From Tubulanus polymorphus (lineage: Eukaryota; Animalia; Nemertea), in NCBI RefSeq assembly GCF_964204645.1, contig NC_134028.1, forward strand, positions 16,561,653 through 16,625,652: a DNA stretch of 64,000 bases. The letters run 5' to 3'. Every line of letters begins with the position of its first letter. Within the stretch, counting starts at the first letter, position 1. A model generated the notes under the pieces. That model was not told the DNA's origin. It did no database searches and saw nothing but the letters and a program-made list of their open reading frames with translations. Positions 2,686 through 25,993 of the stretch are shown here, piece by piece. The position numbers and the translations under genes were made by a program.

Positions 2686-3147
2686 AGTAATAGGGAATAT
2701 GTTGTTTCATACCAAAGGTCGAAATGTCGAGCTCATAAAAAATGAAAAATATGAAAATAATAACAATTTCTATTTGAATTAGTAGCGAAACTCATATAAA
2801 ATGAAAAATAATTCTCGCACACTCGAATTTATTTTTCATTTTATATGAGTTTCACTCCTAATTCAAATAGAAATTATTATTATTTTCATATTTTTCATTT
2901 TTTACTCACTAGCCCTTTCAACCTTTGATATGAAACAAGATATTCCCTATTACTCTTAAAATATTCATATATATGAATAAAATATAAATTAATAACTTCT
3001 AAAATCAATTTTAATAAAAAATTTAGTATTAAAATGGAAGCAAATAAGTACTACTGTCCAACATGTAATATCAATATAGATAAATCCCAAAAATCAAGAC
3101 ACAATAAAACTAAAACACATTTAGAGAATAAATTGAAACTAGAATAT
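2686..3147 (+). repeat. Left TIR (462 bp) containing a 269-bp imperfect palindrome (2686-2954)
   Basis: Reverse complement of 21421-21882 with few mismatches; AGTAATAGGGAATAT at 2686 pairs with ATATTCCCTATTACT ending at 2954. Confidence 0.95.
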
Positions 3148-3261
3148 TTACAGTTATATTCAGAACAGTTAACAAAGGCAAAGAAATTTATTGAATTATG
3201 GAATAATGATCCAAATAATGAACAATACGTTGAGGAATTTGATATCAAGGATATGATTTAG
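3034..3261 (+). CDS. Chimeric 75-aa ORF: pPolB N-terminal Zn finger (inside the TIR) fused to a copy of the HNH-protein C-terminus
   Basis: First 38 aa are identical to ORF 21151-21534; the remainder (LQLY.EQLTKAKKFI..WNNDPNNEQYVE) duplicates 4064-4151. Confidence 0.65.
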   Translation: MEANKYYCPTCNINIDKSQKSRHNKTKTHLENKLKLEYLQLYSEQLTKAKKFIELWNNDPNNEQYVEEFDIKDMI

Positions 3262-3497
3262 ATATTTCATGTCGGTTGTTTCTATTTACATAATTATATA
3301 TAATTATGATTAGCGCATGCGCATTAAGCAAAACCGCGCATGAATGCGCGCTTTTGCCCAGTGGTATTATTTAGATATCAAGGAATCGAAACTGACTTAT
3401 CAAAAGCAGCGAGGAATGAAAAAGGATGACGTTGGTCGAAGAAATGGTAGAGGATTCTAAAATATTAACCAATTTAGTAAAAAAATACGTATAATAA

Positions 3498-4169
3498 ATG
3501 GAACCAGAACAACCACAAATCATCAATATTACAAATAACACTGCTGGTGTTATAAATATATACTACAAGAAGTGTTCTAAATGTGAATTAGATAAATTAG
3601 CTTTAACAGAATTTAGTAAGCGTAAGATTAGCAAAGATGGTTTTCAATATTGCTGTAAAACTTGTTTTAAACTATATACCAAACAATATCGAGAAGATAA
3701 TATAGAACATTATAATTATTATATGGCAGAATATATGAGAGAAAGATATCAAACAGATCTTAATTTTAGATTGAAACAATGTTTAAGATCTAGATTAACA
3801 CAATTATTCAACAAAGAAACACATTCAGAAACATTATCTAATTTGTTGGGTTGTTCGGATGAATTTTTCAAATCATGGATAATATATCAATTCGATGATA
3901 AAATGAATATAGATAATTATGGGGATTATTACCATATTGATTATGTGTTACCAATATCTAAATTTAACATGAATGATGAATACAATAAAAAACTAATTTG
4001 GAATTGGAAGAATTTAAGGCCTTTAGAAAAGAAGGAAAACATAATTAAATTTAATAAACTAGATTTACAGTTATATTTAGAACAGTTAACAAAGGCAAAG
4101 AAATTTATTGATCAATGGAACAATGATCCAAATAATGAACAATACGTTGAGTCTTTAATGAGTGGTTAA
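3498..4169 (+). CDS. Zn-ribbon plus HNH/endonuclease VII-like nuclease of the type common in large DNA viruses
   Basis: CSKC...DG...CKTC, LGCS..FF..WI..QF...MN..NYG.YYHIDYVLP...WNWKNLRPL...EN; the usual HIDH reads HIDY here. Confidence 0.7.
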   Translation: MEPEQPQIINITNNTAGVINIYYKKCSKCELDKLALTEFSKRKISKDGFQYCCKTCFKLYTKQYREDNIEHYNYYMAEYMRERYQTDLNFRLKQCLRSRLTQLFNKETHSETLSNLLGCSDEFFKSWIIYQFDDKMNIDNYGDYYHIDYVLPISKFNMNDEYNKKLIWNWKNLRPLEKKENIIKFNKLDLQLYLEQLTKAKKFIDQWNNDPNNEQYVESLMSG

Positions 4170-4393
4170 AGAATAATAGATTTTAAATAAAAAATATTAA
4201 AAAAACAATAACTTCAACTAGCTAGTGAATTCTACTATATTTTTAATATTTTCTTTTCAAAAAAGAATACTTTATATCACAAATAAAAAATACTAAAAAA
4301 ACAATAACTAATACTAAAATTCTTTAGCTTTAACTAGCTAGTATCATTTGAAGAATACTTATAATATTTTTCTTGCTTTTTTCTCTAATATAA

Positions 4394-5002
4394 ATGTCAA
4401 AGAAATCGAGTAAGAATAATATTGATATTGAAAAAACATTAGATGATTTGGGCATTAGTGATAATAAGGATATTCCGGCCAAAATTGAAAATAATATTCA
4501 AGTTAATTGTAATATAGATTATGAATACTATTTATATTGTAAACACCATCTTGAACTATTGATTGCTAGCGGGAAGTGTAAACAATTTTTAACTAAGACC
4601 ATTACTTTTCAAGAATTAGATGCTATGAAACAAGATGAAGTAATAAAATATTTTAAGATTTATGAAGAGTCAAGATTAGCTAGAATAAATGATTCTATTT
4701 CAGATGGTATTGTCAAATGTTATTCTAAGTTATGTAACCAGTTAATGCCAATTGATGATGAAAATAAATTATATAGTGATTTGAAAAGTGACTATTTAGT
4801 TATGACTGAATTACAAAAATGGGTTGGTTATGCTTCATTCCAATTAGGATCGGTTATGACATTAATTTCTACTGGCGTCATTACATTTTCGAACATCAAG
4901 CCTATGGAATATAAATCAGGTAAGAACGAAACAGATGTACTACAACCAAACAGTGAAACAGAAAATGAATCAGAACAAAAATTAACTAAAATAAATGAGT
5001 GA
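4394..5002 (+). CDS. Polinton hypothetical protein (202 aa) with a hydrophobic segment near the C-terminus
   Basis: Intact ORF with T6-N8-TAAATG start; overlaps the next gene; no motif recognised. Confidence 0.7.
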   Translation: MSKKSSKNNIDIEKTLDDLGISDNKDIPAKIENNIQVNCNIDYEYYLYCKHHLELLIASGKCKQFLTKTITFQELDAMKQDEVIKYFKIYEESRLARINDSISDGIVKCYSKLCNQLMPIDDENKLYSDLKSDYLVMTELQKWVGYASFQLGSVMTLISTGVITFSNIKPMEYKSGKNETDVLQPNSETENESEQKLTKINE

Positions 5003-5366
5003 TGGCGTTAAGAAAAAGGCTAGATCAGAGAAACAAATTAAATGGGCAAGAGAATTAGGTAAAAGATCTTCAGAATTAAAAAAAGCTAAGAAAAAGAAAT
5101 TAACTGGTATAAATGAATCACAGACTTTATCTGATATTAATTCAAATAATAATCCATCTAATTCTTCTAATCCTGGAAGTAATTATAAATTATATATTAC
5201 AATTGGATTAGTAACAGTTATTATATTATCCGGTGTAATATATAAATATAAGTATAAATCTGATTATAACAATAATGATTCCGATGACAATAAACCTATC
5301 ATACCAAATAAGTCAAATGATAAAGTCATTGAAAATAAGATTATAAGATTATTATTAATGGATTAA
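4995..5366 (+). CDS. Small basic protein with one predicted TM helix
   Basis: Basic N-terminus and LYITIGLVTVIILSGVIY; intact homolog at 27619-27984. Confidence 0.8.
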   Translation: MSDGVKKKARSEKQIKWARELGKRSSELKKAKKKKLTGINESQTLSDINSNNNPSNSSNPGSNYKLYITIGLVTVIILSGVIYKYKYKSDYNNNDSDDNKPIIPNKSNDKVIENKIIRLLLMD

Positions 5367-5611
5367 TTAAGATGAAAAAAGAACAGTATTTAAGAGATTT
5401 ATATTATAACCCAGAAAGTGAAGTATCATATTCTAACGTTTCAGAATTATGGAATAAAATTAAATCTGATAATGAAAATGGTAAAATAAAATATAGTGAA
5501 TTAAAATCATGGTTACAAAATCAACCAACATATCAAATCCATAAGAAAATGGATAAAAATTATTTAACAAGAAAAGTTATGGTTTCATATATCGATCAAC
5601 AATGGCAAGCA

Positions 5612-6980
5612 GATTTAATTGACATGCAGAACTTAGAAGAATACAACAAAGGATATTTCTGGATACTGAATGTTATAGACATATTCAGTCGATACGCATG
5701 GTCAATTCCAATCAAAAATAAAACTGGAATAGAAGTTACAAATGCTTTTAAATCTATATTTAAAGAAGCTATTCCAGATAAGATACAATTTGATGAAGGT
5801 AAGGAATTTTATAAGAAACATTTCAAAAAACTATTATCTGATAACGATGTAGATTATTTTTCAACACACTCAGATAAAAAAGCATCTATTATAGAAAGGT
5901 TTAATAAAACATTGAAAACTAGAATGTGGAAATATTTTACTGCTAATGAAACATATATTTATATCGATGAGTCTATAAATATATTAGATGATTTAGTGAA
6001 AGGTTATAATAATTCTAAACATTCAAGTATTGGTATAATCTTATTTTCAATGACTTTATCATTTGACTTATTTGGTATGATAGGTTTATTGTCATCGGAA
6101 TCATTATTGTTATAATCAGATTTATACTTATATTTATATATTACACCGGATAATATAATAACTGTTACTAATCCAATTGTAATATATAATTTATAATTAC
6201 TTCCAGGATTAGAAGAATTAGATGGATTATTATTTGAATTAATATCAGATAAAGTCCAAATTCTCCAAATTTAACTCTCGACTTCCAAATCTATTAATCG
6301 ATTTAATTGACATGAAGAACTTAGAAGAATACAACAAAGGATATTTCTGGATACTGAATGTTATAGACATATTTAGTCGATACGCATGGTCAATTCCAAT
6401 CAAAAATAAAACTGGAATAGAAGTTACAAATGCTTTTAAATCTATATTTAAAGAAGCTATTCCAGATAAGATACAATTTGATGAAGGTAAGGAATTTTAT
6501 AACAAACATTTCAAAAAACTATTATCTGATAACGATGTAGATTATTTTTCAACACACTCAGATAAAAAAGTATCTATTATAGAAAGGTTTAATAAAACAT
6601 TGAAAACTAGAATGTGAAAATATTTTACTGCTAATGAAACATATATTTATATCGATGAGTCTATAAATATATTAGATGATTTAGTGAAAGGTTATAATAA
6701 TTCTAAACATTCAAGTATTGGTATAATCTTATTTTCAATGACTATATCATTTGACTTATTTGGTATGATAGGTTTATTGTCATCGGAATCATTATTGTTA
6801 TAATCAGATTTATACTTATATTTATATATTACACCGGATAATATAATAACTGTTACTAATCAAATTGTAATATATAATTTATAATTACTTCCAGGATTAG
6901 AAGAATTAGATGGATTATTATTTGAATTAATATCAGATAAAGTCCAAATTCTCCAAATTTAACTCTCGACTTCCAAATCT
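5612..6980 (+). repeat. ~690-bp tandem duplication (5612-6292 and 6300-6980); each unit has integrase core, a 220-bp inverted copy of 5123-5345 and the first ~36 bp of the Penelope element
   Basis: Direct comparison: 6034-6256 and ~6722-6945 are the reverse complement of 5123-5345; ORF 6312-6617 repeats the integrase core. Confidence 0.9.
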
Positions 6981-8605
6981 TCCTTATGCTTATGGTCTTC
7001 CAAAAATTCATAAACCCAATTCACCGTTAAGACCGATCATTTCTAATATCAATTCTCCATCATATCGGCTCTCCAAATATCTGGCTAAAGTACTCTCCCC
7101 GGCTTTGGGTACTTTTTCTGATTCTCACATTCGTCACAATATGGATCTTTTAGACAAACTCAAAAATCTCAAACCTAATGGACAGAAATTTATATCTTTC
7201 GACGCTGTTTCCTTGTTCACTAATAAACCATTGGAACCAACTCTCAATTTCTTAAGAAGAAAACTCCCGGACTCCAATCTTGATCTCCCAATTCCTGTAG
7301 AATGTTTACTTGAACTTTTGGAACTCTGTACTACCAATTTATATTTCCGATTCCAAGACAAATTCTATGAACAAATTTTCGGTTTCGCTATGGGTAACCC
7401 ATTATCCCCGATTTTGGCTAATCTTTTCCTTGAACACTTTGAATCCGAAATTCTCCCTAAGTACGCTGGCTCTAAACCTAACTTTTGGATTAGATATGTT
7501 GATGACATTCTGAGCTTAGTTTCTGATAATTTTGATCTTTCCTCTTTTATCGACTTCATCAACTCCCAATATCCATCTTTGAAATTCACTTTTGAATGGG
7601 AACAAAATGACCAAATTCCGTTTTTAGATGTTCTAATTCACTATAAATTTTCTCATTTGATTTTCTCAGTCTACCGTAAACCGATCAACGCCGAGGCATA
7701 CCTTCACTTCTTTTCGTTTACTGCCAAATCAATCAAAATCGGTCTCGCTCAAGGCCTCTTTCTCCGTGCACTGCGGATCTGCGATGAAACCTTCCTTTCG
7801 GCTGAATTTGACCATATATCCAACTCTCTTAGAAAATCGGCTTACCCTGATCACATTTTGAAAATTGCCATTTCTAAGGCTAAACGTACTTTCTTCAATT
7901 CTAAACCTCCAGAAAATAAAAAACACATTTCAGAGTTCATTGTAGTTCCGTATGTACCTGTTTTGGAAAATTTTCGTCACTCTCTCCCTTTATTGGATAA
8001 ACAAATCATTTTCACGTATGAAAACAAAATTAGTAAGACTTTGGTTAAAAACAATCAATCTAAACCTTTGGACTGCGGAGTTTACAAAATTCCTTGTTTT
8101 GGCTGTGATGAAATTTACTTTGGAGAAACTGGTCGTGCTTTAAAAACTCGAATTTCGGAACACAAAAAGGATATGATAAATCAAAAACCGGCTAGTGGCG
8201 TAGCCAATCACGTTTGGAACACTGGTCATCGTTTTAATTTTGATAAAGCCGAAATTATTTATACTTCCAGCAATTACACTAAACGCCACATAGTTGAGTC
8301 TGCCCTAATTACTCGTCACTCAGATATTAGTACCAATTTAAATAATGGCTTTTCTCCGCATAATTCCTTTCTTTCTAAGTATATTACTTCATGCCTTGCC
8401 AAACACTAATTATTTACTCACTCACCAATTTGCTCAATTAACCTGTCCTCCTCTGTATATATACCCCTGTTTTAAGTCTATTTCTCACACCTGACGATGA
8501 TCTCTAGGGTGAGATCGAAACGTCGTGTCTTTTAAATATTTTAGATTTAATAAATAAATTCTTGTTTTTAAATTCTTTTAATCTGTAAATAGTGGGATTT
8601 TATCT
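6945..8605 (+). mobile_element. 5'-truncated Penelope-like retroelement (RT plus GIY-YIG endonuclease; ORF 7105-8409, frame open upstream)
   Basis: YGLPKIHK..PLRPIIS, SFDAVSLFT, GFAMGNPLSP, RYVDD, PFLDV, VYRKP; GVYKIPC..C...YFGETGR.L..RISEH; 3' pLTR region with hammerhead; TATTGGTAT duplicated at both sides. Confidence 0.95.
8486..8529 (+). ncRNA. Minimal type I hammerhead ribozyme in the Penelope 3' pLTR region
   Basis: CACAC-CTGACGA-T-GATCTC/TAGGGT/GAGATC-GAAAC-GTC^GTGT: core CUGANGA, stem II, GAAA, GUC cleavage triplet (cut after 8524), stem I ACAC/GTGT. Confidence 0.85.
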
Positions 8606-9045
8606 TATTGGTATGAAACCTATACAAGCTAGAAAAGAAGATAATTCGGAAATAGTTTGGAATAATTTATATGGTGTGTTTGTAACATATGATTTTGGAG
8701 AACCTAAATTCAAAATTGGACAACACGTTAGAATATCTAAATATAGAAAAACATTTTATAAAGGTTATACCCCTAATTTTACCGAAGAAATATTCAAGAT
8801 TAAAAAGACAATATTAACTAAACCATTTGTTTATAAATTAGAAGATCTAAAAGATGAAGAAATATTAGGTTATTTCTATGAACAAGAATTATCACTTGTA
8901 CCAAATCCAGATGAAATAGAATACAAAATAGAAAAAGTATTGAAAACAAAAACTCTTAAAGGAAAAAAGTATTCTTTGGTGAAATATAAAGGATACGATG
9001 ATAAATTTAATGAATGGATTTTATCTAGTAAAATTAAAAGAATAA

Positions 9046-9657
9046 ATGAATAAAGATTTATTAATATTTGAACCGCATAATATGTTAGTTACTGGTGTAA
9101 CCAATTGTGGTAAAACACATTTCATATTAGATTTGTTAGAAACTATTTATAAGAATCATTTTGATAATATAATATTATTTTGTCCTACTTATGAAATGAA
9201 TAAAACATATAATAGAGATATAGTTAAGATGAAAAAAGTTATTATATTAGATCCTAAAACAGTAAAAGAAAATTTAGATAATTGTATTAAAATAGCAATT
9301 GATACTTAATAAGGATCAAATACATTATTCATTATAGATGATTGCGCAAATTTACATGATTCAAAAGTGAGAGAAAGTGAGTTATGTTATTTAGCTTTCT
9401 CTGGGAGACATTTCGGGATAACAACATGGGTTTTAAATCAAAAATATAATTCAATTGTTAAAGACTTTAGGGAGAATATAAGATTTCTAGTTTTATTTTA
9501 TAACAAAGATAGAAAATCTATGCAACAATCATTGGAAGAAAATCAAATTATACCTACTGAATTACATGATGAATATATGAATAAATTAAAGAATAATAAA
9601 GGTTCAAAATTATTACTGAGACTACATTTTCCCTATGAATATAAGTTTATAAAATAA
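9046..9657 (+). pseudogene. A32/FtsK-HerA-like genome-packaging ATPase with an in-frame stop at 9307-9309
   Basis: Walker A VTGVTNCGKT, Walker B FIIDDCA, GRHFGIT...Q motif. Confidence 0.9.
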
Positions 9658-9676
9658 CTATTTATATATCTATGTA

Positions 9677-9770
9677 TTAGATACCCTATTAGATACCCTA
9701 ATACCTGATACCCTATTAGATACCCTAATACCTGATACCCTAATACCTGATACCCTATTCGATACCTTAA
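9677..9770 (+). repeat. Tandem GATACCCTA(ATACCT/TTA) array between convergent gene blocks
   Basis: About seven GATACC(C)T units; a related array (GTATCTAATAC)n sits at the equivalent position of the outer element (~25930-25975). Confidence 0.8.
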
Positions 9771-9947
9771 ATACTTAAAACCCCCTTTTTTATTTACTAT
9801 TATTTTATACAATTTTCAACCTTTATTATTATTTGAGTGTTAGATAATCAATTTCTGAATCACTTTCACTATCAGACCCCCCTAACAATTTATTCAAATT
9901 CTCTACCGTATCTTCTTCTAATTCTTTATTATTTTTATACTTATTCT

Positions 9948-10697
9948 TCACCTTTTTACCGAATCATCAATAGTTGTTTCATTGTTATGCTTATTCATCC
10001 AATCAAATTTATCTTTATTATCAATGCGCTTTCCTGTATTTTCATTATTATCTTTATTAGTGTTTGCTCCTAATATTTCATTTACAGTGTTTGATCCTAA
10101 TATTTCATTAGCATCGGTTAAATCTAATTCATCTTTATTAGGTGTTGCTAATAAAAAATCTTCATATAATTCTTTACCATTTACTTTTTTATTTGAAACA
10201 AATTTTGTAACATATCTAAATGGGTGTTCTATAAATTCTCTTAAACCAACACGATCTATTACATTAGTAATATGTGAATTTGTATTCATATGTTTATTCC
10301 AATTTGATGGAGCGTTTGAAAATTCACCTTTACAATAATCACAATAATTTCTATTTTCACTAACATTTAATATTATTGCATTATTATATGTAGAAGGTAT
10401 TACATTATTAGATGTAGAAGGTATTACATTATTAGATGTAGAAGGTATTACATTATTAGATGTAGTAGGTATTACATTATTAGATGTAGAAGGTATTACA
10501 TTATTATCAATTACATTACTTAAATTATCAACAACACTACTTTTATTATTATCGATTTCTATTAGTTTAGTTTTATAAATTTTGAAAATAGGATCAAATA
10601 TCAAAGCTATATTACAAGGTATTACATAATATAAACCATCATTATTTTCATGTGTATCGATGTATGGAATATGTTTTAATACTTCACCTCCTTCCAT
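9948..10697 (-). CDS. Polinton accessory protein with five 8-aa (NNVIPSTS) repeats and a C2H2/matrin-like Zn finger
   Basis: 24-bp tandem repeats at ~10381-10505; YCDYCK...WNKHMNTNSH. Confidence 0.75.
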   Translation of the reverse strand: MEGGEVLKHIPYIDTHENNDGLYYVIPCNIALIFDPIFKIYKTKLIEIDNNKSSVVDNLSNVIDNNVIPSTSNNVIPTTSNNVIPSTSNNVIPSTSNNVIPSTYNNAIILNVSENRNYCDYCKGEFSNAPSNWNKHMNTNSHITNVIDRVGLREFIEHPFRYVTKFVSNKKVNGKELYEDFLLATPNKDELDLTDANEILGSNTVNEILGANTNKDNNENTGKRIDNKDKFDWMNKHNNETTIDDSVKR

Positions 10698-10729
10698 TTA
10701 ATATAAGATTTTTTATTAAAGTTAAAATT

Positions 10730-11977
10730 TTAATACATAACACTATCTAATTGTGAATTTACAATATTTAATTGCGCGTCAGATATAATATAAATGTGCA
10801 TTTTGAAATTTAGACTTCCTTTTTTCTTTTTCATGAATAATTGTATTCCATCTTTAGTGTTCTGTAATTTTTTTCCAGAACCATGTAATGAATTATCCTC
10901 TGTTGTTCTAAAATCTAACCATAATGCATATTTATTACCGGTATAATAATCAATTTGATTAATATTACAATTTTCAGATGATTTTACTTTTTCATTCATA
11001 AAATGTTTTCTAATTTCTGGCCATTGATCTATCATTCTCATTCCTTGACAAAATATTTTATTTTCTATTCCTTTGATAGTTATTTCTACTTTTGTTATTT
11101 CAGGATTATAATACTTATCGACCTGTATTGCGCCATTAGAATATGTTGCAATGGTAAGAAATATTAATATACCTTTAATAGATCTTCTTGGGAAGTTAAT
11201 ATTCTCATTAATAATTTCATCATTTGCATTAATAGTTACGGTTTTAAATTTATCAATATAATCATATAATAATGAAAATCCTTGATTGTATTGAGTTTGA
11301 ATTATGCTTGAAATATTTTCATTAGTTACTGTGTCATATTCTAAACATATATTCGATAATTTATAACTCAAATCTTTAACAACGCTAGATAATACAATTT
11401 CATTTACAGGAGCAAAAGTTATTTCGAATATAACGTCTTCTTGAATTGCGTATTTATATAAAGGTGCATTATTATTTATCAATTCAAAGTCTAATGGAAT
11501 TTTATATTTGCTTCCATAAATCTTTTTTATCAAATTATCTGCGGTACGAGTTACTATTGCGTCATTAGCTCCTGATCTTAATTTATTATGGTTTTCCGAT
11601 TGAATGCCCTGAAATATCATATTATTTCTATTTTCTTTAGTTAACCATAAATCTTTATAATGCATAAATAAATTATAATCATCTAATGAGAAAACTGTTT
11701 CTGGACCAATCTTTATTGTTAACTTTTTAATCAAATATCTTCCAACATTATCAACAACATAATTGTTATCATGGCCAGTTACTTTTATATCAGCTGATAA
11801 ATAAATACTATTTGGAACATAAAAAGTATTTTGTGTTAATCTCGGATTTCTAACATATAAAGTTTCATCAGGATTAATATTAGAAGGGTTATGAGTAATT
11901 ATATGATGTGATCTTTCTGCTTTAATAGCATTAGATATTCTATGATTCTTAGAAGGATTGATATAACTCCCACTCAT
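10730..11977 (-). CDS. Putative major capsid protein (double jelly-roll expected), intact 415 aa
   Basis: Size, beta-rich composition (LIKKLTIKIG, YKIPLDF, VIFEITFAP, YKLSNICLEYD, FPRRSIKGILIF, YALWLDF), strong conservation with the outer copy and Polinton context; fold assignment is inferred, not computed. Confidence 0.72.
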   Translation of the reverse strand: MSGSYINPSKNHRISNAIKAERSHHIITHNPSNINPDETLYVRNPRLTQNTFYVPNSIYLSADIKVTGHDNNYVVDNVGRYLIKKLTIKIGPETVFSLDDYNLFMHYKDLWLTKENRNNMIFQGIQSENHNKLRSGANDAIVTRTADNLIKKIYGSKYKIPLDFELINNNAPLYKYAIQEDVIFEITFAPVNEIVLSSVVKDLSYKLSNICLEYDTVTNENISSIIQTQYNQGFSLLYDYIDKFKTVTINANDEIINENINFPRRSIKGILIFLTIATYSNGAIQVDKYYNPEITKVEITIKGIENKIFCQGMRMIDQWPEIRKHFMNEKVKSSENCNINQIDYYTGNKYALWLDFRTTEDNSLHGSGKKLQNTKDGIQLFMKKKKGSLNFKMHIYIISDAQLNIVNSQLDSVMY

Positions 11978-11997
11978 TTATTTAACAAAAAAATTAA

Positions 11998-13448
11998 TTA
12001 TTTATTTTTAATCATGTTTACTAACCCAAAAATAATAGCACTTACAACTGTAATTAAAAATAAAATAATATGTTCAGCAGCAAAGTTAATAATGTTTCCT
12101 GCAGATTTCAATAGAAAACCAACAATTGATGCAATAATTCCTGGTAAAGCTGCAGCAGATTTCTTTGATAGTTCCCATAAATATTTTGCTAATTTCTTTA
12201 AACCATCCTTAACTTTATCTTGTATTGAATTATTATCTGGGGGTTTATCTGGTTTATTGGGAGTAGGGAGTAGATTTTAAAGCATTTGATATTGCTAAAC
12301 CAATTGTTGTAAATAACATAGTTACAGCTGTTAGAATTGAAAGAATTGTTATTCCTTCAAACTTAAATAATAATTTTTATTCTATCTTTCAATGATATTC
12401 TAGAATCTGGTTTTATTAGATATCTTTTAAAAACATCTTTTAATCTATTAATATTATAATCATATGATTTTAATAATAATTTAATTTCTTCGTTTTGTAA
12501 TTCTATGTTATATTCTAAATCATCTTTTTCTTTTCTAAACGTAATTCTTTTTGCCTATATTCTATTTCATCAAGTAATTGATGATCTAAATCAGACTTTA
12601 ATTGTTCTATTTCTTTATTTTTATCAGTCAATTCTTTTTCTAAAGTTCTAATTTTTAAATCTCTTATTTCTTTTTCATGCGCAATTTTATCAGATGCATG
12701 TCTTATACTTTCAATTTCTCTTATTGCTTTACCAGAAAATATATCTAAATCCTCTAATTCTTGTTTTGTTGCATCAAGTAATCCCTTCGGTAAAAGTTTT
12801 TCAGTTTGAACTTCTCTTGAATTAGGTCTACTAGTTTTGGAAGTTTTATTCTGTTCAGAAGTTGTTTCCGGTTCTAAATTATTATCGATTGTTTCAAATA
12901 AGTCATTAATTCTTTGTTTAAATACTCTTTTATTTTGATTTATTTCTTCTTGTGTTACATCTTCTATTTCATTACTATTATAACTTATTCTTTTAATTCT
13001 ATCTGGCTCTAATTTTTCCAAAGTTGATCCTGCTAATATTTTGTTTATTTTTATAAGAGATGTTAATATAATAATCATCTTTCAATTTATAATAATATTC
13101 ACCATCTAAAGATTTTAATTCTTGTACTAAAAGTCTAGCGCCTCTATCATTTATATTATATCCAGATTCTTTAAATACATGTTGAAAATCATACATAAAT
13201 TCAATATTTTCTAAATTTTGTCTTACTAAACCTTGATTTTCATTTTCAGGATTTATTCTCGATCTAGTTCTTCTATCAAATTCATCTGTTGATTGGCCTT
13301 TAGAACCACTATCTGCTAAATTAGAATTATATGCTGATTCATCATCATTATCAAAATTAGTTTCTGCATCATTATAATCATCATCAATATATCCTTCATT
13401 ATTATTTCCCATGTCATCCAATGGAATATCTTCTCCACCTTCTGCCAT
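11998..13448 (-). pseudogene. Large acidic/coiled-coil protein with C-terminal membrane segments (frameshifted; ORFs 12999-13448 and 12515-13078 plus tail)
   Basis: MAEGGEDIPLDDM start, heptad region, then GITILSILTAVTMLFTTIGLAI and LPGIIASIVGFLLK...HIILFLITVVSAIIFGLV on the - strand. Confidence 0.75.
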
Positions 13449-13461
13449 TTACATAAAAAAA

Positions 13462-14850
13462 TTAAAATTCAAAATATAATATTCCTCCGATTACAATTCC
13501 TATACAAGTTATAGATAATTTAGTATTTTCATGGGATTTATTATCATCATTTATTTTAATTATTTCATGTTGAATATTATCAGTTTTTATATTTTCTGAT
13601 GTATTATAATCTTTTATTTTAGAATCATTATTTAATTTAATATCATTAGTTTTAGTTTCTGTTGATTGAATATGTTTTTTATTTTTTTCACCTTCCATTA
13701 ATTTTGGAGCAGTAATAATCTTTTTATTTGTATCATTTAAACCAAATGAATTATTCATTGTTGCAGTTTTAATTAGATTATTATAACCAATTATATTTCC
13801 CATCTTTAATACTAAATCATTAGAAATAATTAATAGATTAGGGCCTATACAATAATTTAATCTAATATGTGATTTATCTAAAAAATTTTGATATCTTACA
13901 ATGTTTTCTGGAATCGATCTATTTTTATCATTATGAATTGAATCTTCAAATAATACTTTAAATTGTTTTTGTGTATCGAATGATGTATTTAAATTTCCAA
14001 TTATTGGGGATCTTGTTTCAACTTGTGCACCTAAAATACATATCAAATAAGTTCTAATAGATTGATTTATTCTTTGTAGACCTGATTTTGTAAAACCTTC
14101 ATTATTTTCTAAAATAAAATAAACCCAACCATTATTGTTTTCTTGTTTTAAATTATCATAAAATGTCGGTAATTTATTGAAATTTAATGTTTCTAAATCC
14201 TTAGTTTCTATTTTACCATAACCTAATTTATTACTATAGATATTATACAAACTATTAGATGGTATGGGAAGTGCACAATATTCTGCAATCTTTTTAGGGC
14301 AAGGAAGTGATCTTATTGTTCCAATTTTTGTTCTAAAATCAGAATTATTTATATCTATATTAAATTCATTACAAATTTTATAAAACTTTGATAAATTAAT
14401 ATTATTATCTAATTCTTTAAAATACCTAGATTCTGGTAAAGCGCACTCTAATTCATTTAATATTATTCTGATTTGAAAGTATGTATGAAATCTATATAAA
14501 CTTTGAATTAATTTATATTTAGACTTATTCAAATGATCATTCCACTTAATTCCACAAACTGTTGTTGCACAATAAACAGCAAAATTTAATTGGTTCTGCC
14601 AATACTTCATATTAGATTTTAATAACCATGGTTTTTCATCTTTCAATTTTTTAAAATCAATTAAATATACATGAAATATATTTTCCATCTTTGCATTCAA
14701 ATTATTATTTTCAGTAACATAAATTTCTAAATTAGTTAATGAATCTAAAACTTCATTTCTATATGTAATATCTTTATTAAAATCTATTGCTGGAATATTA
14801 TATTTAATTGATTTATTATATTGGAAAGCTTTTGGAAAACTATCTACCAT
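13462..14850 (-). CDS. Polinton hypothetical protein (462 aa) with C-terminal TM anchor
   Basis: Intact ORF, TAAATG start, WQNQLNFAVYCAT and YRFHTYFQIR blocks, terminal ITCIGIVIGGILYF. Confidence 0.75.
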   Translation of the reverse strand: MVDSFPKAFQYNKSIKYNIPAIDFNKDITYRNEVLDSLTNLEIYVTENNNLNAKMENIFHVYLIDFKKLKDEKPWLLKSNMKYWQNQLNFAVYCATTVCGIKWNDHLNKSKYKLIQSLYRFHTYFQIRIILNELECALPESRYFKELDNNINLSKFYKICNEFNIDINNSDFRTKIGTIRSLPCPKKIAEYCALPIPSNSLYNIYSNKLGYGKIETKDLETLNFNKLPTFYDNLKQENNNGWVYFILENNEGFTKSGLQRINQSIRTYLICILGAQVETRSPIIGNLNTSFDTQKQFKVLFEDSIHNDKNRSIPENIVRYQNFLDKSHIRLNYCIGPNLLIISNDLVLKMGNIIGYNNLIKTATMNNSFGLNDTNKKIITAPKLMEGEKNKKHIQSTETKTNDIKLNNDSKIKDYNTSENIKTDNIQHEIIKINDDNKSHENTKLSITCIGIVIGGILYFEF

Positions 14851-14866
14851 TTATATAATTAAAAAA

Positions 14867-15301
14867 TTAATAATTTATTAATTCTTTTAATAAATTATCT
14901 TGTTCTTCAACTGTTATATGACCATTTAAACTTATTATATAATCTAGTGTATTCTTCAATTTATTAATCTCTTTTATATTAGTTTTCATTTTTTCTTTAT
15001 TACTTTTTATATTTAATTTTGAACTTATACCAGTTAAAACACTTGATGATAATCCTAACAGACCAATTGATATAGCTAAAGGTGTTAATGGACTGAATAT
15101 TGCTAAAAATGTTATTACAGAACTAATTGTAACCGAACCACTAATCATGAGATAATATATAATTTTACTTTTTAAATACTTTTTCTTTTTTATCTTTAAG
15201 TCACTTTCAAATTCTAATATTTGTTTTTCTAAATATGTTTTTAGTTTAGTTTTATTTATATCATGAGGAATAATATCAATATTATCAACTTTATCTTCCA
15301 T
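14867..15301 (-). CDS. Two-TM membrane protein with flanking coiled coils
   Basis: IIYYLMISGSVTISSVITFLAIF and LAISIGLLGLSSSVLTGI; T8-N6-TAAATG start. Confidence 0.75.
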   Translation of the reverse strand: MEDKVDNIDIIPHDINKTKLKTYLEKQILEFESDLKIKKKKYLKSKIIYYLMISGSVTISSVITFLAIFSPLTPLAISIGLLGLSSSVLTGISSKLNIKSNKEKMKTNIKEINKLKNTLDYIISLNGHITVEEQDNLLKELINY

Positions 15302-15321
15302 TTATTTAGCAAAAAAAATTA

Positions 15322-15744
15322 CTAATTAGTAAATTTATATGCTACAAATATAACAATAACTGTTCCACCTAAAATCCATATTATTTCATATTTCTGTTGT
15401 TCTTTACTCGGGGTATAATAATCTGATAATTTAGGTCTGTATAGATGTAATTTTTCTTTATTGGTTACCGCGTTATATAAACTCATTGCATCATCAACTG
15501 ATTGAAAATCTCTATGCGAAATCTTCTGATCATATAATTCTTTATTGATGTAATCCATATAGTTTTGTCGTTTTTCTCTATATTCTTCTGCTGCTTTATT
15601 ATATTTCTCTAATGCTAAGTTATGTCTTCTTTGTTCTCCTAATGAACTATTTTTATCAATATGCTTAAATAAATATCCACCATCAGTAAATGCTAAAGCG
15701 TTAACAATTGCCGATCCTATAATAGTTATAATTGCAGAAGCCAT
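15322..15744 (-). CDS. Small protein with N- and C-terminal hydrophobic segments
   Basis: MASAIITIIGSAIVNALAF ... IIWILGGTVIVIFVAY; T7-N6-TAAATG start. Confidence 0.75.
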   Translation of the reverse strand: MASAIITIIGSAIVNALAFTDGGYLFKHIDKNSSLGEQRRHNLALEKYNKAAEEYREKRQNYMDYINKELYDQKISHRDFQSVDDAMSLYNAVTNKEKLHLYRPKLSDYYTPSKEQQKYEIIWILGGTVIVIFVAYKFTN

Positions 15745-15768
15745 TTATTTAGTAAAAAAATTATGCAT

Positions 15769-15990
15769 TTATATGGGAGGAATAAATTTTTGTTTTTCCA
15801 AATAATCAATAGTTAAATTAGATAAAGTAACTGCTAAAGTTAATTTTAAAATATCATTTATATCAAATCTATCAACATTAACACTTCCCATTTTGAATAC
15901 TTTTTTTAATACCATTGAATAACCAACAGTTCCAATTGATAGTAATGCACCATTATATAATCCAGTTATTATCCACTTATTATCACTCAT
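15769..15990 (-). CDS. Small hydrophobic protein (73 aa)
   Basis: IITGLYNGALLSIGTVGYSMVL; T7-N6-TAAATG start. Confidence 0.7.
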   Translation of the reverse strand: MSDNKWIITGLYNGALLSIGTVGYSMVLKKVFKMGSVNVDRFDINDILKLTLAVTLSNLTIDYLEKQKFIPPI

Positions 15991-16347
15991 TTATTTATCA
16001 AAAAAATTACTATCTTCAAAATATTTAGTTATCTTATTTATAATTATTTCAACATTTATTTCATTACTAGTTTCATTTGTATATATTTCAATTATTATTT
16101 TTTTAATATCATCGATGATAAAATCTTCATCTAATTCATAAAATCTTAAAGATTCTCTAATTAAATTAGTAATCTTTTCTACATTTAAAGTTTCTTTATC
16201 TATTGTTGTTTCATACTCAAATGTTGTTTCATTAGAAAATACAATATTTTTGATTTGTGTAATTACATCATTAATGTCAAATTTCATTTCTTTCTCATGT
16301 TTAAAATCAAACCCAAAACATATACTCGGTCCAACAGTTATATTCAT
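15991..16347 (-). CDS. Small acidic hypothetical protein (118 aa)
   Basis: Intact ORF tiling the gene block; T6-N8-TAAATG start. Confidence 0.65.
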   Translation of the reverse strand: MNITVGPSICFGFDFKHEKEMKFDINDVITQIKNIVFSNETTFEYETTIDKETLNVEKITNLIRESLRFYELDEDFIIDDIKKIIIEIYTNETSNEINVEIIINKITKYFEDSNFFDK

Positions 16348-16364
16348 TTATATAGTGGAAAAAA

Positions 16365-17120
16365 TTACTCTCTACATCTTATAACTAATTCATATATCAC
16401 AGAAAAGTTATTCAAATCAATTAGATATCCATTATGATTTCTTATTTCTAATTTAAAATTATTGAATTTAGGAATGCATGGTTTGAAATCACATTCTGTT
16501 AAATTATAATTTATTTGAGTTCGAAATTGTTTAACATTTTTTAATGGTAAAATATTTAATATACTAGAATTACAAATTGTTTCTTTAGTTGCTTCGAAAG
16601 TTTTTGTAGGCTCGATTAAATTGCAATAAATATGAAAGTGTGTAAAAGGTATTATATTTGAGCTGCCTTCTGCGTTTCCAGTAACTGTAAGAGGTTTAAT
16701 TCCTAAAATTTTAGCCAGTGGTTTGTTTACCATAAATTTATGTTGTTCATTAGATATCTTTATTCTTATTTTATTAGTACTATCAATTTTATTAAATTTA
16801 ATTTCAAATACAGAAGTGCCCCCGATTTTCAACCGAGCTCTTCTATTAATTTCCTGCGCTAATGATTCTAAATTATATAATCCTGGTTTTAAAAATATAT
16901 GAAACCATTTATCTTTATTTCTCATATAAATCATAAACCCTCTATGTTCAAAAGTTTTATCCGATACATTGTAAAAAGAATTACATAAACTTATATTAAC
17001 TAATTTTAAATCTACACAATTCTTGAATTCTCTATCTAATTGTACTAGTAAATCATGAGATTTATAATTTGTAAGCCTTCTAGAATCAACAAATATTCTG
17101 TATTCTTTTAATTCCACCAT
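16365..17120 (-). CDS. Putative minor capsid (penton, single jelly-roll) protein
   Basis: IFVDSR...SFYNV...PGLYNLESL...LAKILG...HIYCNLI...SILNILP...LEIRNHNGYLIDLN...ELVI pattern typical of Polinton/PLV minor capsid proteins. Confidence 0.78.
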   Translation of the reverse strand: MVELKEYRIFVDSRRLTNYKSHDLLVQLDREFKNCVDLKLVNISLCNSFYNVSDKTFEHRGFMIYMRNKDKWFHIFLKPGLYNLESLAQEINRRARLKIGGTSVFEIKFNKIDSTNKIRIKISNEQHKFMVNKPLAKILGIKPLTVTGNAEGSSNIIPFTHFHIYCNLIEPTKTFEATKETICNSSILNILPLKNVKQFRTQINYNLTECDFKPCIPKFNNFKLEIRNHNGYLIDLNNFSVIYELVIRCRE

Positions 17121-17137
17121 TTATTTTACATATTTTC

Positions 17138-17491
17138 TTATTCGAAATCTATTTCATGATGCCCCTTTTCATTCTTACCTTTGTATACGAAATAGAAATC
17201 ACCAGAACATAATTCTTCTAGGTCTTCACTTGATAATCTATGAAATCTATCTGGTAAATATGTTCTGAATTTATATGTATTTCCTTTTAATCCTTCATAT
17301 TCTAAGTGTATAACTAATTTATCTACATATTTGTTAGTAATTGTATCAATATTTGTAATAAGATATTTCTTATGGATTATTAATTCTTTTAACTTCTTAA
17401 ATTTATAATCTACTGATTTGACATTTGAAGTATCTTTGATTCTATCTAGAAATGATTTGTTGTTCTCACTGTGTGTTTGTTTACTCTCCAT
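17138..17491 (-). CDS. Small Polinton-associated protein next to polB (possible OB-fold)
   Basis: FKKLKEL...KY.IT...TNKY..KLVIHLE...TYLPDRF...FVYKG; fold is inferred only. Confidence 0.6.
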   Translation of the reverse strand: MESKQTHSENNKSFLDRIKDTSNVKSVDYKFKKLKELIIHKKYLITNIDTITNKYVDKLVIHLEYEGLKGNTYKFRTYLPDRFHRLSSEDLEELCSGDFYFVYKGKNEKGHHEIDFE

Positions 17492-17520
17492 TTATAATAC
17501 ATATTTTTACTAAAATTTGA

Positions 17521-20500
17521 TTAACACGTTAGAATTCTTTTCATTATCTCGTTCTCTTTTGTTTCTTCTCTTTTAGATTTTAAGTATTCATCTAAATTAC
17601 AACCATAAGCAACTGTATGAATTCCATCATCTAAAATATATCTTTTATCATCAAATGGGTTTAGACTTACCTTTTCAATTTCTTCAATAAACATTTCATG
17701 ATCTTCATATCTTAAACATCTCATCTTATGTTTTCTAACTTCTTCATTGAATATACAATTGATGTAATCTTTGAAATGAATATTCTTTTCTACTACACTT
17801 TTGGTTATTCCTTTTAACTTTTTAGCTTCATGTTCTTTAGTTTTATATGAATACATTTTAGATCTAATACCTATGAATTCAATCATTTCTTCACCACCTA
17901 ATTCATCTTTGAATTTACCGGGAACTTTTTTATTATCATTGCTAAAAAATTCATGATTTTTAGGATAATTACTGAAATCAAAATGATGTTTTAATGTTTT
18001 TAAATCATCAGTTATGTTATCAGTTTTTATCTTTAATATGTAACTGTCGGTATCAAAATATAATATTTCTATATGTTTTTCTCCAAAAAGTGGTTGTAAT
18101 ACATTATAATAGAATTCATACATTAGTAATTTTGATAATTCTAAAACTGAAGCGCCAACATAGATTGGTTTATTAAATTTCATTGATGTTCTTCTCATTT
18201 TAACTGCAGCTAAATTTTCATCAAATATTCTGTTACCAATGAACTTAGGATATGTTTGTAAATGTCTAATTCTTTTACCATTACTGACTAACTCAATATC
18301 ATTTCTATTTCTAATATTTTCACAAGTCTTGCCATAGAATGCATTATTCATTAACTTGAAGAAATCTTTTTCGAAATCAGTTTTAGCTTTAGTTCTCTGT
18401 TTGGTGTTAAAATCTATATATTTTTCTAACCACTTAGATTGGCTGAATGAAATATATCTACGTACTTTTTTTAGAATCATTCCTTGTTTTAGATAAAACT
18501 TTAACATTCTGTAATGTACTACATAATTATATTTATCTTCTTGAGTTACCATTAACTTTTCTGTATGAATATGATTTTCGGGTTTAATTTTTTTTTGGTA
18601 ATTTGATAATTCTTCATGAGTTACAGTTTTATGTTCTTGACAGTAAGCTAGATTTCTTGATTTAAATTTTTTATCTTCAGGATATTCTAAATCTACATCA
18701 AAGAAGTAACCAGTATCTGAATCATCTGCAATATCTAGAATTCTTTTCTTCCAATCAAATTTATCATTATTTTCATTCTGTAAAACTTCAGTTAATTCAA
18801 ATACTCCATAAGGTTGTGGTTCCATCATTGCCCAACCATACAAATTATTTGCATCTATATATAATAACTTATATCCGGGGTTATCATTTACATTGAAATA
18901 TCTATCACCTAATACACCTGAAACTCCTCCTCTTATAGATTTTTCAAATAATAGTAATTGATCTATATTTGTTAACAAATCCATTTTTATATCTGTAAAT
19001 TTCAATCCACGATCCCATGTTAAACCTGGTGATGAATAACAATGGCAAGGATCAATGTTAAAATATTTTAGGTTTACATCTCTAAACCTTTCGAATATAT
19101 CGGTTAATAATAATACATCAGATTTTAAATATATATATATATACTAATTGCCCATGATTTTCTATTTTGAAATGATTCCAAATATTCAATGTTCTATTAT
19201 ATACTTCATCTTTAACATATTCATTTTTTAATTCATCATAAAATTGTTCTTTTAATAATTCAGTTATATTGAAATCATTATGTGATTTATAAAATGAATA
19301 TGGAATTGCTCCTTTATATCTCATTAATTGAAAATCATCATTATTTGGATGGTGTTGTTTTAATATTTTTAATTCTTCATCAACTAATGATTTTGATAAG
19401 TTATCTAATGAACTACCTAGAAACCTATATGAATCTATAAATCTTAGACACCCAAATTGGAAAGATATATAATTCTCAGATGTTTTAGCTAACATTCTAA
19501 ATTTATAAGTTGGTATTTTAGCAACATCTTTTGATCTATATGAATTTAATCTTTCTATTTCATTATTAATTTCTTCTATCTTATGGCACAGTTGCTTGAT
19601 GAATAAATGTGCATCATATCCTGATAGATTATGAAATATAACTGGTACAAAATTAATTTTCTTAGCTTGTAAGTTACAATTCTCATGTGCAGCGCCTCTA
19701 AACTTTCCATTCAAATGATCATGGTCTCTTACTTTTTTATCTTTATAATTAAATATCTTTTCACAATAATAACATTTATCTGCAAACGCAAATTCTTTAT
19801 TTGTATTCAATAATTTACTAAATCTTATTTCATATTCAATTAATAAGTCACAAAAATGATTGATAACATTTTCATTTCTATAATGATAATATTCACTTTC
19901 AATTAGTTCTGGATAATCAGATTTAATATATAACCCGAAAGCTGCAGCTGATTGATGAATCTTTTTAATAGTATTTGTTTTTGGTGGTTCATCTGAAAAA
20001 TCATTTTCATTAGAATTTAATTTCTTTCTTTTATAATATATTTCTTTTCTATCTTGATCAGTTAATTCTTTATTTAATGATTCAAAATCTCCATATATAA
20101 CAAATGGTACTTTATTTTTGTAATCATATTTTTTGAATTCTAATATTTTATCCTTTTCATTTGGTAAAACTAATTTACAATAATCATGATTTTCACATAA
20201 TTGTTTATGATTTAATAATGCACTCTCATTACTGAATTTATGTAAACATTTTCTACATAGATATATTTTACGAGCATAATCATTTTCTGATTTAAAAAAT
20301 AAATCAATTTGTTTAATCCACATATAATGATTTTCATAATATAGTATATCTATAACATCGTTTGAATCATAATCATTTGATAGGTATAAAGGTTCTAATG
20401 TATAATGTTTTATATTGTTACCTTTTGTTTTTGGTAATTTGATTAAATCGAATACATTTATCTTTATATTATTATCTCTTTCTATTTTTGGGATATTTTT

Positions 20501-21534
20501 AATTCTAACAGGATACTTATCTATCTTATAATTATTTTCAAATGGTTTATAATGAGTTAATCTAAAACTATGTGTAATATCTTCTGTTGGATGTAAACAA
20601 CTTATTATAGCCCATAGAAAACATTTATCATCAAAATTTTGTACATTTATAACAGCATTAGTTTTAAATGGTAGTTTAATATAACTCGATGCTTCAATAT
20701 CTGGTTCTTTATAATATGATACATTATTTTCATCAATTGGTTTCGATTTAGTTAACTTATTATATTTTGTGTTATAAACATGTCAAGTCATAAATATTAT
20801 TTCATCAAATATTAGACCAGATCCTTCAAAATATTTCTCTTCTATTTTAGTTTTTACTTCATTATAACATTTATCTAATTTATCATCTATATGTTGTTTT
20901 GAAATAATATGTTGTGAATGAGAATTTATATTATATATTGGTTTATCTTCAGATTTTATGAATTTAACTTTAACTGATATACTAATTTTAGGATATTCAA
21001 CATCAGTTATTATTTTTATTATTTCTTTCATATTTTCTAAATGTTTTTTATTTTCTTCTAATGTTTTTCCTTTATGAAATTTAAACTCGATAGCTGCTGG
21101 ACCAATATCACTTTTAAATGCTTCGGTTATCTCTATATCTTTTTTATTATCTAATGAATTAATATAATTTCTTCCATGTACGGTCTTTTATTGTTTAATT
21201 TATTTCTTATTCTTTTAATTGTCTTGTGTTTCTTATCATTATCTTTATCAATATGATCTTCACCTAAAATATCATTATTCTTATTTCTAGTATGACTTTT
21301 AGATTTTAAATGTTCATTATAATATCTTTTATCACTGAATGATTGATTACATGTATCACATTTGTATGTTTCTTTTTCATTCTTTAATTCATCTAATTTA
21401 GTTTCTAATATATCATCTTCATATTCTAATTTTAATTTATTCTCTAAATGTGTTTTAGTTTTATTGTGTCTTGATTTTTGGGATTTATCTATATTGATAT
21501 TACATGTTGGGCAGTAGTACTTATTTGCTTCCAT
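17521..21534 (-). pseudogene. polB: Protein-primed family B DNA polymerase with N-terminal Zn fingers and an inserted endonuclease VII-like Zn domain; several frameshifts
   Basis: ExoI VIYGDFES, ExoII FHNLSGYDAH, Pol A YIDANNLYGWAM, Pol B KLMNNAFYGK, Pol C YFDTDS; CYYC...VRDHDHLNGKFRGAAHENCN; split over four ORFs. Confidence 0.95.
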
Positions 21535-21882
21535 TTTAATGCTAAATTTTTTATTAAAATTGATTTTAGAAGTTATTCATTTATATTTTATTCATATATA
21601 TGAATATTTCAAGAGTAATAGGGAATATCTTGTTTCATATCAAAGGTTGAAAGGGCTAGTGAGTAAAAAATGAAAAATATGAAAATAATAATAATTTCTA
21701 TTTGAATTAGGAGTGAAACTCATATAAAATGAAAAATAAATTCGAGTGTGCGAGAATTATTTTTCATTTTATATGAGTTTCGCTACTAATTCAAATAGAA
21801 ATTGTTATTATTTTCATATTTTTCATTTTTTATGAGCTCGACCTTTCGACCTTTGGTATGAAACAACATATTCCCTATTACT
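21421..21882 (-). repeat. Right TIR (462 bp) with a 269-bp palindrome (21614-21882); includes the polB start
   Basis: Reverse complement of 2686-3147. Confidence 0.95.
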
Positions 21883-22742: not shown

Positions 22743-22774
22743 AATTTTAATTTTAATAAAAAAATTTATAATAA

Positions 22775-25233: not shown

Positions 25234-25255
25234 ATTTAAAATATAAATATAATAC

Positions 25256-25828: not shown

Positions 25829-25993
25829 TTCAATTAAAATCATAAAATGTTTTTTTGTTCATTCATACATTAATTGAAAAATTAAAATAAATAATATTTA
25901 TTTTTCTTAAAAGGGAGTTTTAAGTATTAAGGTATCTAATACGTATCTAATACATATCTAATACGTACCTAATACAAAAATGCTTAAAATGTC

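Follow-up and report, generated by a model that had tools for sequence, protein, structure and literature searches.

The 64,000-nucleotide stretch of Tubulanus polymorphus DNA analysed here, called the window below, contains at positions 2686-21882 a decayed Polinton/Maverick, both ends of which start with a long fold-back palindrome. Polintons are reportedly characterised by a protein-primed family-B DNA polymerase (pPolB), an rve integrase, an A32-type ATPase, terminal inverted repeats (TIRs), a 6-bp target-site duplication and 5'-AG...CT-3' termini. The element has TIRs, a 6-bp duplication and termini of this kind. Its coding region matched an rve integrase (PF00665, E 4.1e-09) at 5372-6115, a chromo domain (PF00385, E 3.4e-05) at 8589-9053, as in an integrase with a chromodomain, and an A32/FtsK-type packaging ATPase (PF04665) at 9046-9309 and 9313-9657, with a stop between the two parts. 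The zinc-finger/pPolB gene occupies 17521-21576 on the minus strand and is split over four reading frames in this copy, while two relatives introduced below (L005 and L007) have it as a single open reading frame (ORF) of 1241-1336 amino acids. The translations of ORFs 17521-19143 and 19118-20782 (minus strand) contain an exonuclease motif and the sequences DANNLYGWAM, KLMNNAFYGK and YFDTDS, which we take to be polymerase motifs A, B and C. The polymerase ORFs gave no polymerase match in Pfam and no sequence match in the PDB.

The element interrupts the capsid-like gene of an older, inverted and related Polinton, which forms the flanks on both sides (1-2685 and 21883-27985) and shares 86-95% identity with positions 5123-12377 in the inner element. 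The hexamer AATATG is found next to each end, at 2680-2685 and 21883-21888, and is single at the uninterrupted paralogous site (11335-11340, minus strand) in the inner element's own capsid-like gene. The outermost nucleotides of the palindromes at the two ends are therefore the integration junctions.

Structure of the terminal palindrome

At both ends, the outermost part of the 462-nt TIR is a 269-bp imperfect palindrome (2686-2954 and 21614-21882), in which two 126-nt arms surround a 17-nt centre. Both 269-bp stretches start with AGTAATAGGGAATAT and end with ATATTCCCTATTACT. At the left end (plus strand), the outer arm extends from 2686, the element terminus (5'-AG), to 2811, the unpaired loop from 2812 to 2828, and the inner arm, an inverted copy of the terminus in which a motif described below is degenerate, from 2829 to 2954. 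The right end (minus strand) has its inner arm at 21614-21739, a centre at 21740-21756 that is the reverse complement of the left one, and its outer arm at 21757-21882, where 21882 is the element terminus (CT-3'). A repeat search recovered the right-end arms as 126-nt sequences, 90% alike and 17 nt apart, together with a matching pair at the left end. Exact matches to the terminal 15-mer were found in the window at the four arm ends only; the other 8 of the 12 matches had 3 mismatches.

Folded as single-stranded DNA, the left palindrome had an energy of -91 kcal/mol and the right one of -105.3 kcal/mol, compared with mean values of -17.7 and -19.4 kcal/mol for dinucleotide shuffles (z = -23.7 and -26.4). 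None of the 200 shuffles folded as well. In a position-by-position check, 13 of the 126 arm pairs of the left palindrome and 12 of those of the right one were mismatched, in addition to 7 central positions. The two ends have 12 arm mismatches in common, and the one at position 40 (2725) occurs in the left palindrome only. Eight of the 13 form a bubble at positions 35-50 from the end (2720-2735 facing 2905-2920), a clustering with a p value of about 1e-5. Folding and position check thus agreed with the coordinates, sequence, arms and bubble that the first-pass annotation, made from the letters of the sequence, had given for this fold-back. The arms are AT-rich (25% GC), the left and right inner arms are identical (126/126), and the palindrome is present as the same isomer at either end of this copy.

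The two TIRs (2686-3147 and 21421-21882) differ at 7 positions and are 98.5% identical. Only one difference was found in the 269-bp palindrome, versus 6 in the 193-nt subterminal part (Fisher p 0.023). On the left, this subterminal part (2955-3147, plus strand) carries, as a copy of the right end, the promoter region and 37 initial codons of the zinc-finger/pPolB gene; its counterpart on the right (21421-21613, minus strand) is the start of the gene itself. The arm mismatches had been proposed to be maintained on the ground that they are almost the same at both ends. This argument does not hold, because two TIRs that are 98.5% identical copies share their mismatches anyway; the proposal itself stands on evidence from reads and relatives.

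The left end was covered with raw reads from one sequencing run of the same organism (X6) and with contigs of three other runs (X2-X4), and both sources span the whole palindrome. At 2686, 302 X6 reads stop matching and continue into flanks that are unlike one another (agreement 0.36), indicating that many insertion sites share this terminus, and 333-343 reads continue through the uninterrupted capsid-like gene. A sub-family in which the first 19 nt are different, also with unlike flanks, was represented by 684 reads, and a correspondingly altered end of the inner arm by 456-522 reads. At 3147, 670 reads depart into the continuation found at the right end.

Symmetric shorter forms of the palindrome were also present. 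In one of them 2730 is joined to 2810 (92 reads), with a mirror form that joins 2835 to 2914 (45 reads); in another 2751 is joined to 2810 (101 reads), and its mirror joins 2829 to 2889 (24 reads). Both forms were found in the contigs of X2-X4 as well. A further form joins 2751 to 2889 (47 reads), and two listed variants with letters between the two sides (9 reads each) carry the centre sequence. Arm lengths therefore cluster at about 45, 66 and 126 nt, and every class appears symmetrically on the two arms around one conserved centre.

Summed over both directions, read depth was about 480-940 in the arm parts specific to the long form and about 1240-1600 in the adjoining TIR, both figures being uncalibrated to copy number. 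Reads that depart at 2954 into differing sequence did not form any of the six best-supported loose-end classes, the smallest of which had 254 reads, with the 302 reads at 2686 as a control. Amplified solo palindromes are rejected, and rare or low-copy ones are possible. An assembly artefact was ruled out by the raw reads and contigs of four runs, and by an independent metagenome contig with a fold-back of its own.

Conservation of pairing and an unequal motif

A scan of metagenome contigs with the C-terminal half of the polymerase returned 489 relatives, the best 80 of which were kept. Five of them are close, with pPolB amino acid identities of 85% (L004), 84% (L005), 83% (L006 and L008) and 73% (L007). 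Contig L004 has a 257-bp terminal fold-back in its own sequence (190-446), the arms of which are 86% alike. Contig L006 begins inside a fold-back: its inner arm ends at 120, and 16 nt of outer arm were seen by eye to pair with the start of this arm. The contigs of L005 and L008 stop before the element end and were not counted. In L007 a plain terminus is followed by the polymerase gene. The same arrangement was found in a third, more distant Polinton of the window, the terminus of which (61653-61751, plus strand) shares the terminal 46-nt pattern and is followed by a zinc-finger ORF about 100 nt in; that it has no hairpin had been noticed in the first pass and was upheld. The fold-back is thus present in 3 of 3 visible ends of the close clade versus 0 of 2 in the sister clade. 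The suspicion that other copies of the family might lack the palindrome was not borne out, since the reads at many sites, L004 and L006 all have it.

Upstream of the polymerase genes of distant relatives, with pPolB identities of 38-50%, only short hairpins (20-82 bp) were found, which were not counted as fold-backs. The viral contig L003 (38% polymerase identity) has a 184-bp palindrome at 4657-4840 (DNA fold z -15), between its integrase-chromodomain and polymerase genes. An internal site, two joined ends and a nested copy are all possible explanations, and no closer relatives came out of a second scan. In L004 the terminal 17-mer occurs a third time, in direct orientation, at 949-965, just before the zinc-finger/polymerase promoter. 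A small gene homologous to window positions 17138-17491 separates this copy from the terminal fold-back, an arrangement that would fit outward growth of the end.

Comparison of the window with L004 showed that 22 of 117 arm pairs have changed on both sides and still pair. Shuffles gave 7.3 +/- 2.3 such changes, with none of 500 reaching 22, and slid partners gave 3-5. Such double changes affect 8 of the 38 pairs of the terminal helix, where the alignment is good. The arms are 92% alike within the window element and 86% within L004, against 78-83% between the elements, and no signal of orthology between outer arms was detected. Collectively, these data indicated that the pairing structure is kept rather than the sequence, and reads and relatives together confirmed the 269-bp palindrome as a real, terminal and maintained end structure.

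Pairing is not kept throughout. Positions 20-46 of the terminus follow a conserved pattern, the last part of which (32-46) is a tandem motif of the GTCGA(G) type. In the left outer arm this motif is GGTCGAAATGTCGAG (2717-2731, plus strand), and it is a likely protein recognition site; the inner-arm counterpart at 2909-2923 is GGTTGAAAGGGCTAG. All four lineages with a visible outer terminus (the outer arms of the window element, the third Polinton, L004 and L007) have the motif in identical register, and in all three inner arms (window, L004 and L006) it is mutated or differently spaced. The motif site is overlain by 8 of the 13 arm mismatches, and the unpaired cells of L004 fall in columns 30-40, at the same place as the mismatch cluster of the window. 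The remainder of the arms is thus kept paired while the motif site is kept unequal. As the motif is intact outside and degenerate or out of register inside, the inner end is not a second complete terminus, and the earlier description of the palindrome as a mini-element with two complete termini is not supported. The asymmetric motif at positions 32-46 is a specific candidate for the site bound by the integrase or by the polymerase/terminal protein.

Nuclease genes, other genes and surrounding DNA

A stand-alone gene at 3498-4169 (plus strand), adjoining the left TIR, matched phrog_1035 (E 2.1e-11) and putatively encodes an HNH-superfamily nuclease, which is a candidate end-processing enzyme. 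Homologs were found only at loci of the fold-back lineage, namely the window, L004, L005 and L006 (4 of 84 subjects searched). In the three contigs the gene follows the polymerase gene immediately, in the same orientation (L004:5132-5818, L005:4079-4849, L006:4842-5609); in the window, the polymerase block is at the other end of the element from the HNH gene, and inverted. The gene was not found in the 2.1 kb behind the pPolB gene of L007, which hold a convergent ORF of 697 amino acids instead. An AlphaFold2 model of the protein had a pLDDT of 90.4, and its fold matches were weak and to generic HNH proteins only. Assignment as a T4 endonuclease VII (EndoVII)-type junction resolvase was tried and rejected: a profile search of PDB sequences gave nothing relevant, Foldseek returned weak matches to Cas9 HNH domains (best E 0.01), and VIA-align gave Z scores of 4.8 or less, with beta-beta-alpha-Me/HNH enzymes scattered among unrelated rows. 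On the predicted structure, the product of 3498-4169 is assignable only to the HNH superfamily.

The polymerase itself contains an EndoVII/HNH-like motif, CxxC...DH(D/C)H...CN, in ORF 19118-20782 (amino acids 335-372), just before the exonuclease motif. The module was present in 70 of the 84 subjects searched, which is nearly all relatives whose contig extends that far. Two of the 70, the third Polinton and L007, have no hairpin, and a tie between this module and the fold-back was therefore ruled out. In the available text of one paper the module is interpreted as a homing-endonuclease insertion (PMC11161782).

The integrase gene (5123-8409) is broken by a 688-bp tandem duplication (5612-5911 and 6300-6599, 99-100% identical) and by an insert containing a reverse transcriptase ORF (6931-8409, PF00078). 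The C-terminus of this ORF shows, by eye, a GIY-YIG-like motif, which would fit a Penelope-like element. ORF 10730-11977 was called capsid-like by its position and as a repeated family gene only, and it had no Pfam or PHROG match. No protease gene was recognised. Fourteen of the 19 ORFs of the element start within TAAATG, mostly behind a T-rich tract. The same ATAAATGG context was found upstream of the polymerase ORFs of L003, L004 and L045, and is similar to a late-promoter/initiator motif of viruses. The boundary of the left TIR falls within the zinc-finger ORF, and the left-end ORF 2977-3261 consists of the first 37 codons of that ORF fused to a duplicate of the HNH-gene tail (3129-3234 versus 4046-4151, 89% identical). 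This composition indicated that one end of the element was rebuilt from the other.

Outside the nested elements, the older Polinton breaks off at about 27985, where the composition shifts from about 24% to about 36% GC. The host part contains other mobile elements at 31918-37648 and 46964-51941. A Helitron-like gene set (OTU, DUF6570, Helitron_like_N and PIF1) was recognised there, as well as a long terminal repeat (LTR) retrotransposon with gag and aspartyl protease matches and direct repeats that include a 300-nt stretch of 100% identity. A 24-bp tandem repeat array of about 28 units lies in an open frame at 30589-31264. Host DNA also has a 464-bp imperfect palindrome (42310-42773, 72%), which is unrelated to the fold-back.

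Possible roles and comparison with known systems

We know of no account of how integrated Polintons/Mavericks replicate, repair their ends and leave the chromosome. Strand displacement followed by panhandle re-formation of the origins is established for phi29 and adenovirus. Our interpretation starts from the structure of the fold-back, its position at the integration junction, its many insertion sites, its conservation in the clade, the co-variation of its arms and its asymmetric motif. Because arm pairing is what is selected, the relevant state would be a hairpin or a cruciform, and the type of polymerase encoded points to protein-primed strand-displacement replication as the one stage in which single-stranded DNA of the element would be expected. 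We therefore favour the view that the fold-back is a cis-acting terminal hairpin that acts during protein-primed replication, and put the probability of this reading as a whole at roughly 45%. The selected state would be the hairpin, and the single-stranded stage in which it plays its part would be replication by pPolB. Whenever an end became single-stranded in the course of strand displacement, the fold-back is predicted to snap into a hairpin, and self-folding at each end would be much quicker than an encounter between two TIRs separated by 19 kb. The hairpin would provide the displaced strand with a base-paired end and would thus be a local substitute for the long-range TIR panhandle. The inner arm could serve as a spare template copy of the terminal sequence. 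The outer arm alone would be the working terminus, the unequal motif keeping the inner copy from being used as an end.

Several points weigh against this view. The single-stranded or extrachromosomal form on which it relies is itself inferred. The sister clade (the third Polinton and L007) has no fold-back, so that the structure is not essential to this type of polymerase. The recognition motif is mismatched in the hairpin, a poor fit to a simple mimic of a duplex origin, and the arms are only 90-92% paired, which excludes frequent copying of one arm from the other. The co-variation was drawn from two independent full sequences and read-level variants, and the alignment of the AT-rich middle is uncertain. 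Hairpins could have produced some of the symmetric skips in short reads as artefacts of the library, an explanation opposed by the extra letters between the two sides and by the presence of the forms in contigs. Finally, the available text of a preprint on Halocafeteria seosinensis finds terminal palindromes preferentially in elements without pPolB (bioRxiv 10.64898/2026.07.28.741278).

The fold-back could also be a functionless by-product of a single ancestral inverted duplication of the terminus, spread by homogenisation of the TIRs and kept symmetric by gene conversion between the arms. Its absence from the sister clade shows that it is dispensable, terminus-like pieces are duplicated elsewhere (the direct 17-mer copy of L004), the TIR boundary at 3147 inside a gene shows that the ends are copied from one another, and the two ends are more alike in the palindrome (1 of 269 positions differing) than in the subterminal TIR (6 of 193). 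We nevertheless regard a neutral origin as unlikely. Long AT-rich palindromes are usually lost, yet this one persists across polymerases that differ by 15-17%; diverged arm sequences show compensated changes and mirrored indels; and blind conversion would erase the mismatch cluster, which the window and L004 have in matching positions. A role in self-priming or as a hairpin origin, suggested in the first pass, is possible. In a parvovirus-like rolling-hairpin scheme the 3' end would fold back and prime synthesis, and a nuclease, possibly the element's own HNH protein, would nick the bubble-marked arm. The palindrome is imperfect and terminal and has a conserved bubble, the stand-alone HNH gene was found only at loci of the fold-back lineage, and in minute virus of mice such a bubble leaves only one arm as an active origin. 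Hairpin priming has been proposed for the terminal palindromes of endogenous virophages and of Polinton-like viruses (PLVs) in the preprint text at hand (bioRxiv 10.64898/2026.07.28.741278). Self-priming would however be redundant beside a retained protein-primed polymerase, and no HUH/Rep family was found in 35 window ORFs searched against Pfam or 8 against PHROGs, sets that do not cover all small ORFs. The HNH fold matches are weak and generic (Foldseek best E 0.01, VIA Z of 4.8 or less), and the association of the gene with the fold-back hangs on one partly seen hairpin-less locus. The six best-supported loose ends included no flip/flop class, which leaves fewer than 254 reads at 2954 against 302 at 2686. 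The complete rolling-hairpin scheme consequently appears quite unlikely to us.

Three further proposals treat the palindrome as a device for moving, freeing or closing the ends. It might be a rescue device: extruded as cruciforms at the element boundaries, the palindromes would be cut by a junction-cutting nuclease, freeing a genome with hairpin ends that synthesis would then unfold, as has been proposed for the rescue of adeno-associated virus (AAV) from plasmids. The palindrome begins exactly at the boundary between element and flank, its arms are AT-rich (25% GC), and EndoVII/HNH-like modules are encoded in the polymerase and in a separate gene. We consider this scheme highly improbable, as the EndoVII-like module is not tied to the fold-back (70 of 84 subjects, including the third Polinton and L007), there is no evidence of excision footprints, and extrusion is disfavoured by the 17-nt centre and the 10% mismatches; the published part of one study at our disposal moreover treats this module as a homing-endonuclease insertion (PMC11161782). 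Little more can be said for a stand-alone fold-back miniature inverted-repeat transposable element (MITE) with two usable ends, either self-mobile or captured at the Polinton ends, which corresponds to the separately mobilisable mini-Polinton of the first pass. Both ends of the 269 bp have an identical 15-nt terminal sequence, Polintons at this locus insert into each other, so that composite ends could form, and solo copies in low number are compatible with the six best-supported loose ends. The inner arm has no intact tandem motif in any of the three lineages, though, the long-form arms are read at lower depth than the adjoining TIR, no class leaving at 2954 was among those loose ends, and the 64-kb window contains neither extra copies of the terminal 15-mer nor stand-alone copies; we regard this origin, too, as highly improbable. 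The chances are slimmest for a covalently closed hairpin telomere of the poxvirus/N15 type, processed by a telomere resolvase and represented here in its unfolded, integrated form. An imperfect AT-rich palindrome with extrahelical positions does resemble unfolded poxvirus telomeres. An open duplex end, however, is required for the integration seen here, in which a 6-bp duplication adjoins the outermost nucleotide of the outer arm; neither a resolvase nor a protelomerase family was found in the 35 ORFs searched with Pfam or the 8 searched with PHROGs; and the same isomer is present at the two ends. This idea, also put forward in the first pass, seems extremely unlikely.

A bolder reading can also be imagined, which we consider very unlikely. 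The fold-back would be a self-contained telomere by which an integrated or displaced Polinton rebuilds or frees its own ends, a cruciform or hairpin forming exactly at the boundary and HNH/EndoVII-type nucleases of the element cutting or nicking the bubble-marked arm, so that precise termini would be freed and restored. If this were true, an end mechanism of the parvovirus/AAV style would have been grafted onto a protein-primed virus. In any case, a clade with the fold-back beside a sister clade without a hairpin provides a natural comparison for the role of terminal hairpins in protein-primed elements.

Among known structures, foldback transposons and hairpin MITEs share with the fold-back two inverted termini around a short centre. 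They move as units and are amplified, whereas the palindrome is not over-represented here and its inner end is without the conserved motif. The left end of minute virus of mice is also an imperfect terminal palindrome in which a mismatch bubble makes the arms unequal. Parvoviruses differ in having a single-stranded DNA genome, an HUH nickase and self-priming, none of which was seen here. Adenovirus and phi29 replicate by protein priming from both ends, and their displaced strand must regain a paired end. In these systems pairing takes place between distant inverted terminal repeats, whereas here each end could pair with itself. For Polintons in general, simple TIRs are the described norm, and the sister clade has a plain terminus in the same window (61653). 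Judged by titles and the openings of abstracts, supplements excluded, the Polinton/Maverick papers listed by a literature search included no other report of such ends in pPolB-encoding Polintons.

The linear replicons of Streptomyces resemble the element in having 5' ends capped by a terminal protein and palindromes that fold back in the 3' overhang, according to the accessible portions of two papers (PMC5449611; PMC4513846). At these telomeres, the fold-back palindromes of the single-stranded overhang serve both priming and the repair of truncated ends, as far as the consulted text of the first paper goes (PMC5449611). The systems differ in that those replicons are bacterial, start replication at an internal origin, depend on Tap/Tpg, proteins for which no search was made here, and have a series of short, packed palindromes in place of the one long palindrome of the Polinton; there is no homology between them, and the likeness is one of functional analogy only.

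The closest parallel is provided by the virophages and PLVs of Halocafeteria seosinensis. The preprint describes, in the text available, palindromes about 52 nt in length, carried by endogenous virophages and by a single PLV subtype, and proposes hairpin priming (bioRxiv 10.64898/2026.07.28.741278). As in the window, both ends of an integrated, Polinton-related element have the palindrome inside the TIR and immediately beside the target-site duplication. Theirs are about 52 nt long and are reported to occur preferentially with replication genes other than pPolB, while those described here measure 176-269 bp and belong to a Polinton clade that encodes pPolB. The present palindromes further differ in their conserved mismatch cluster over the terminal motif, the co-variation of their arms and their arm-length classes. 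We thus see the long fold-back as a variant of these recently described terminal palindromes, with a function that would be exerted at the replicating end. Terminal palindromes of virophages and PLVs are hereby extended to pPolB-encoding Polintons, the very group in which the available preprint text finds fewer of them.

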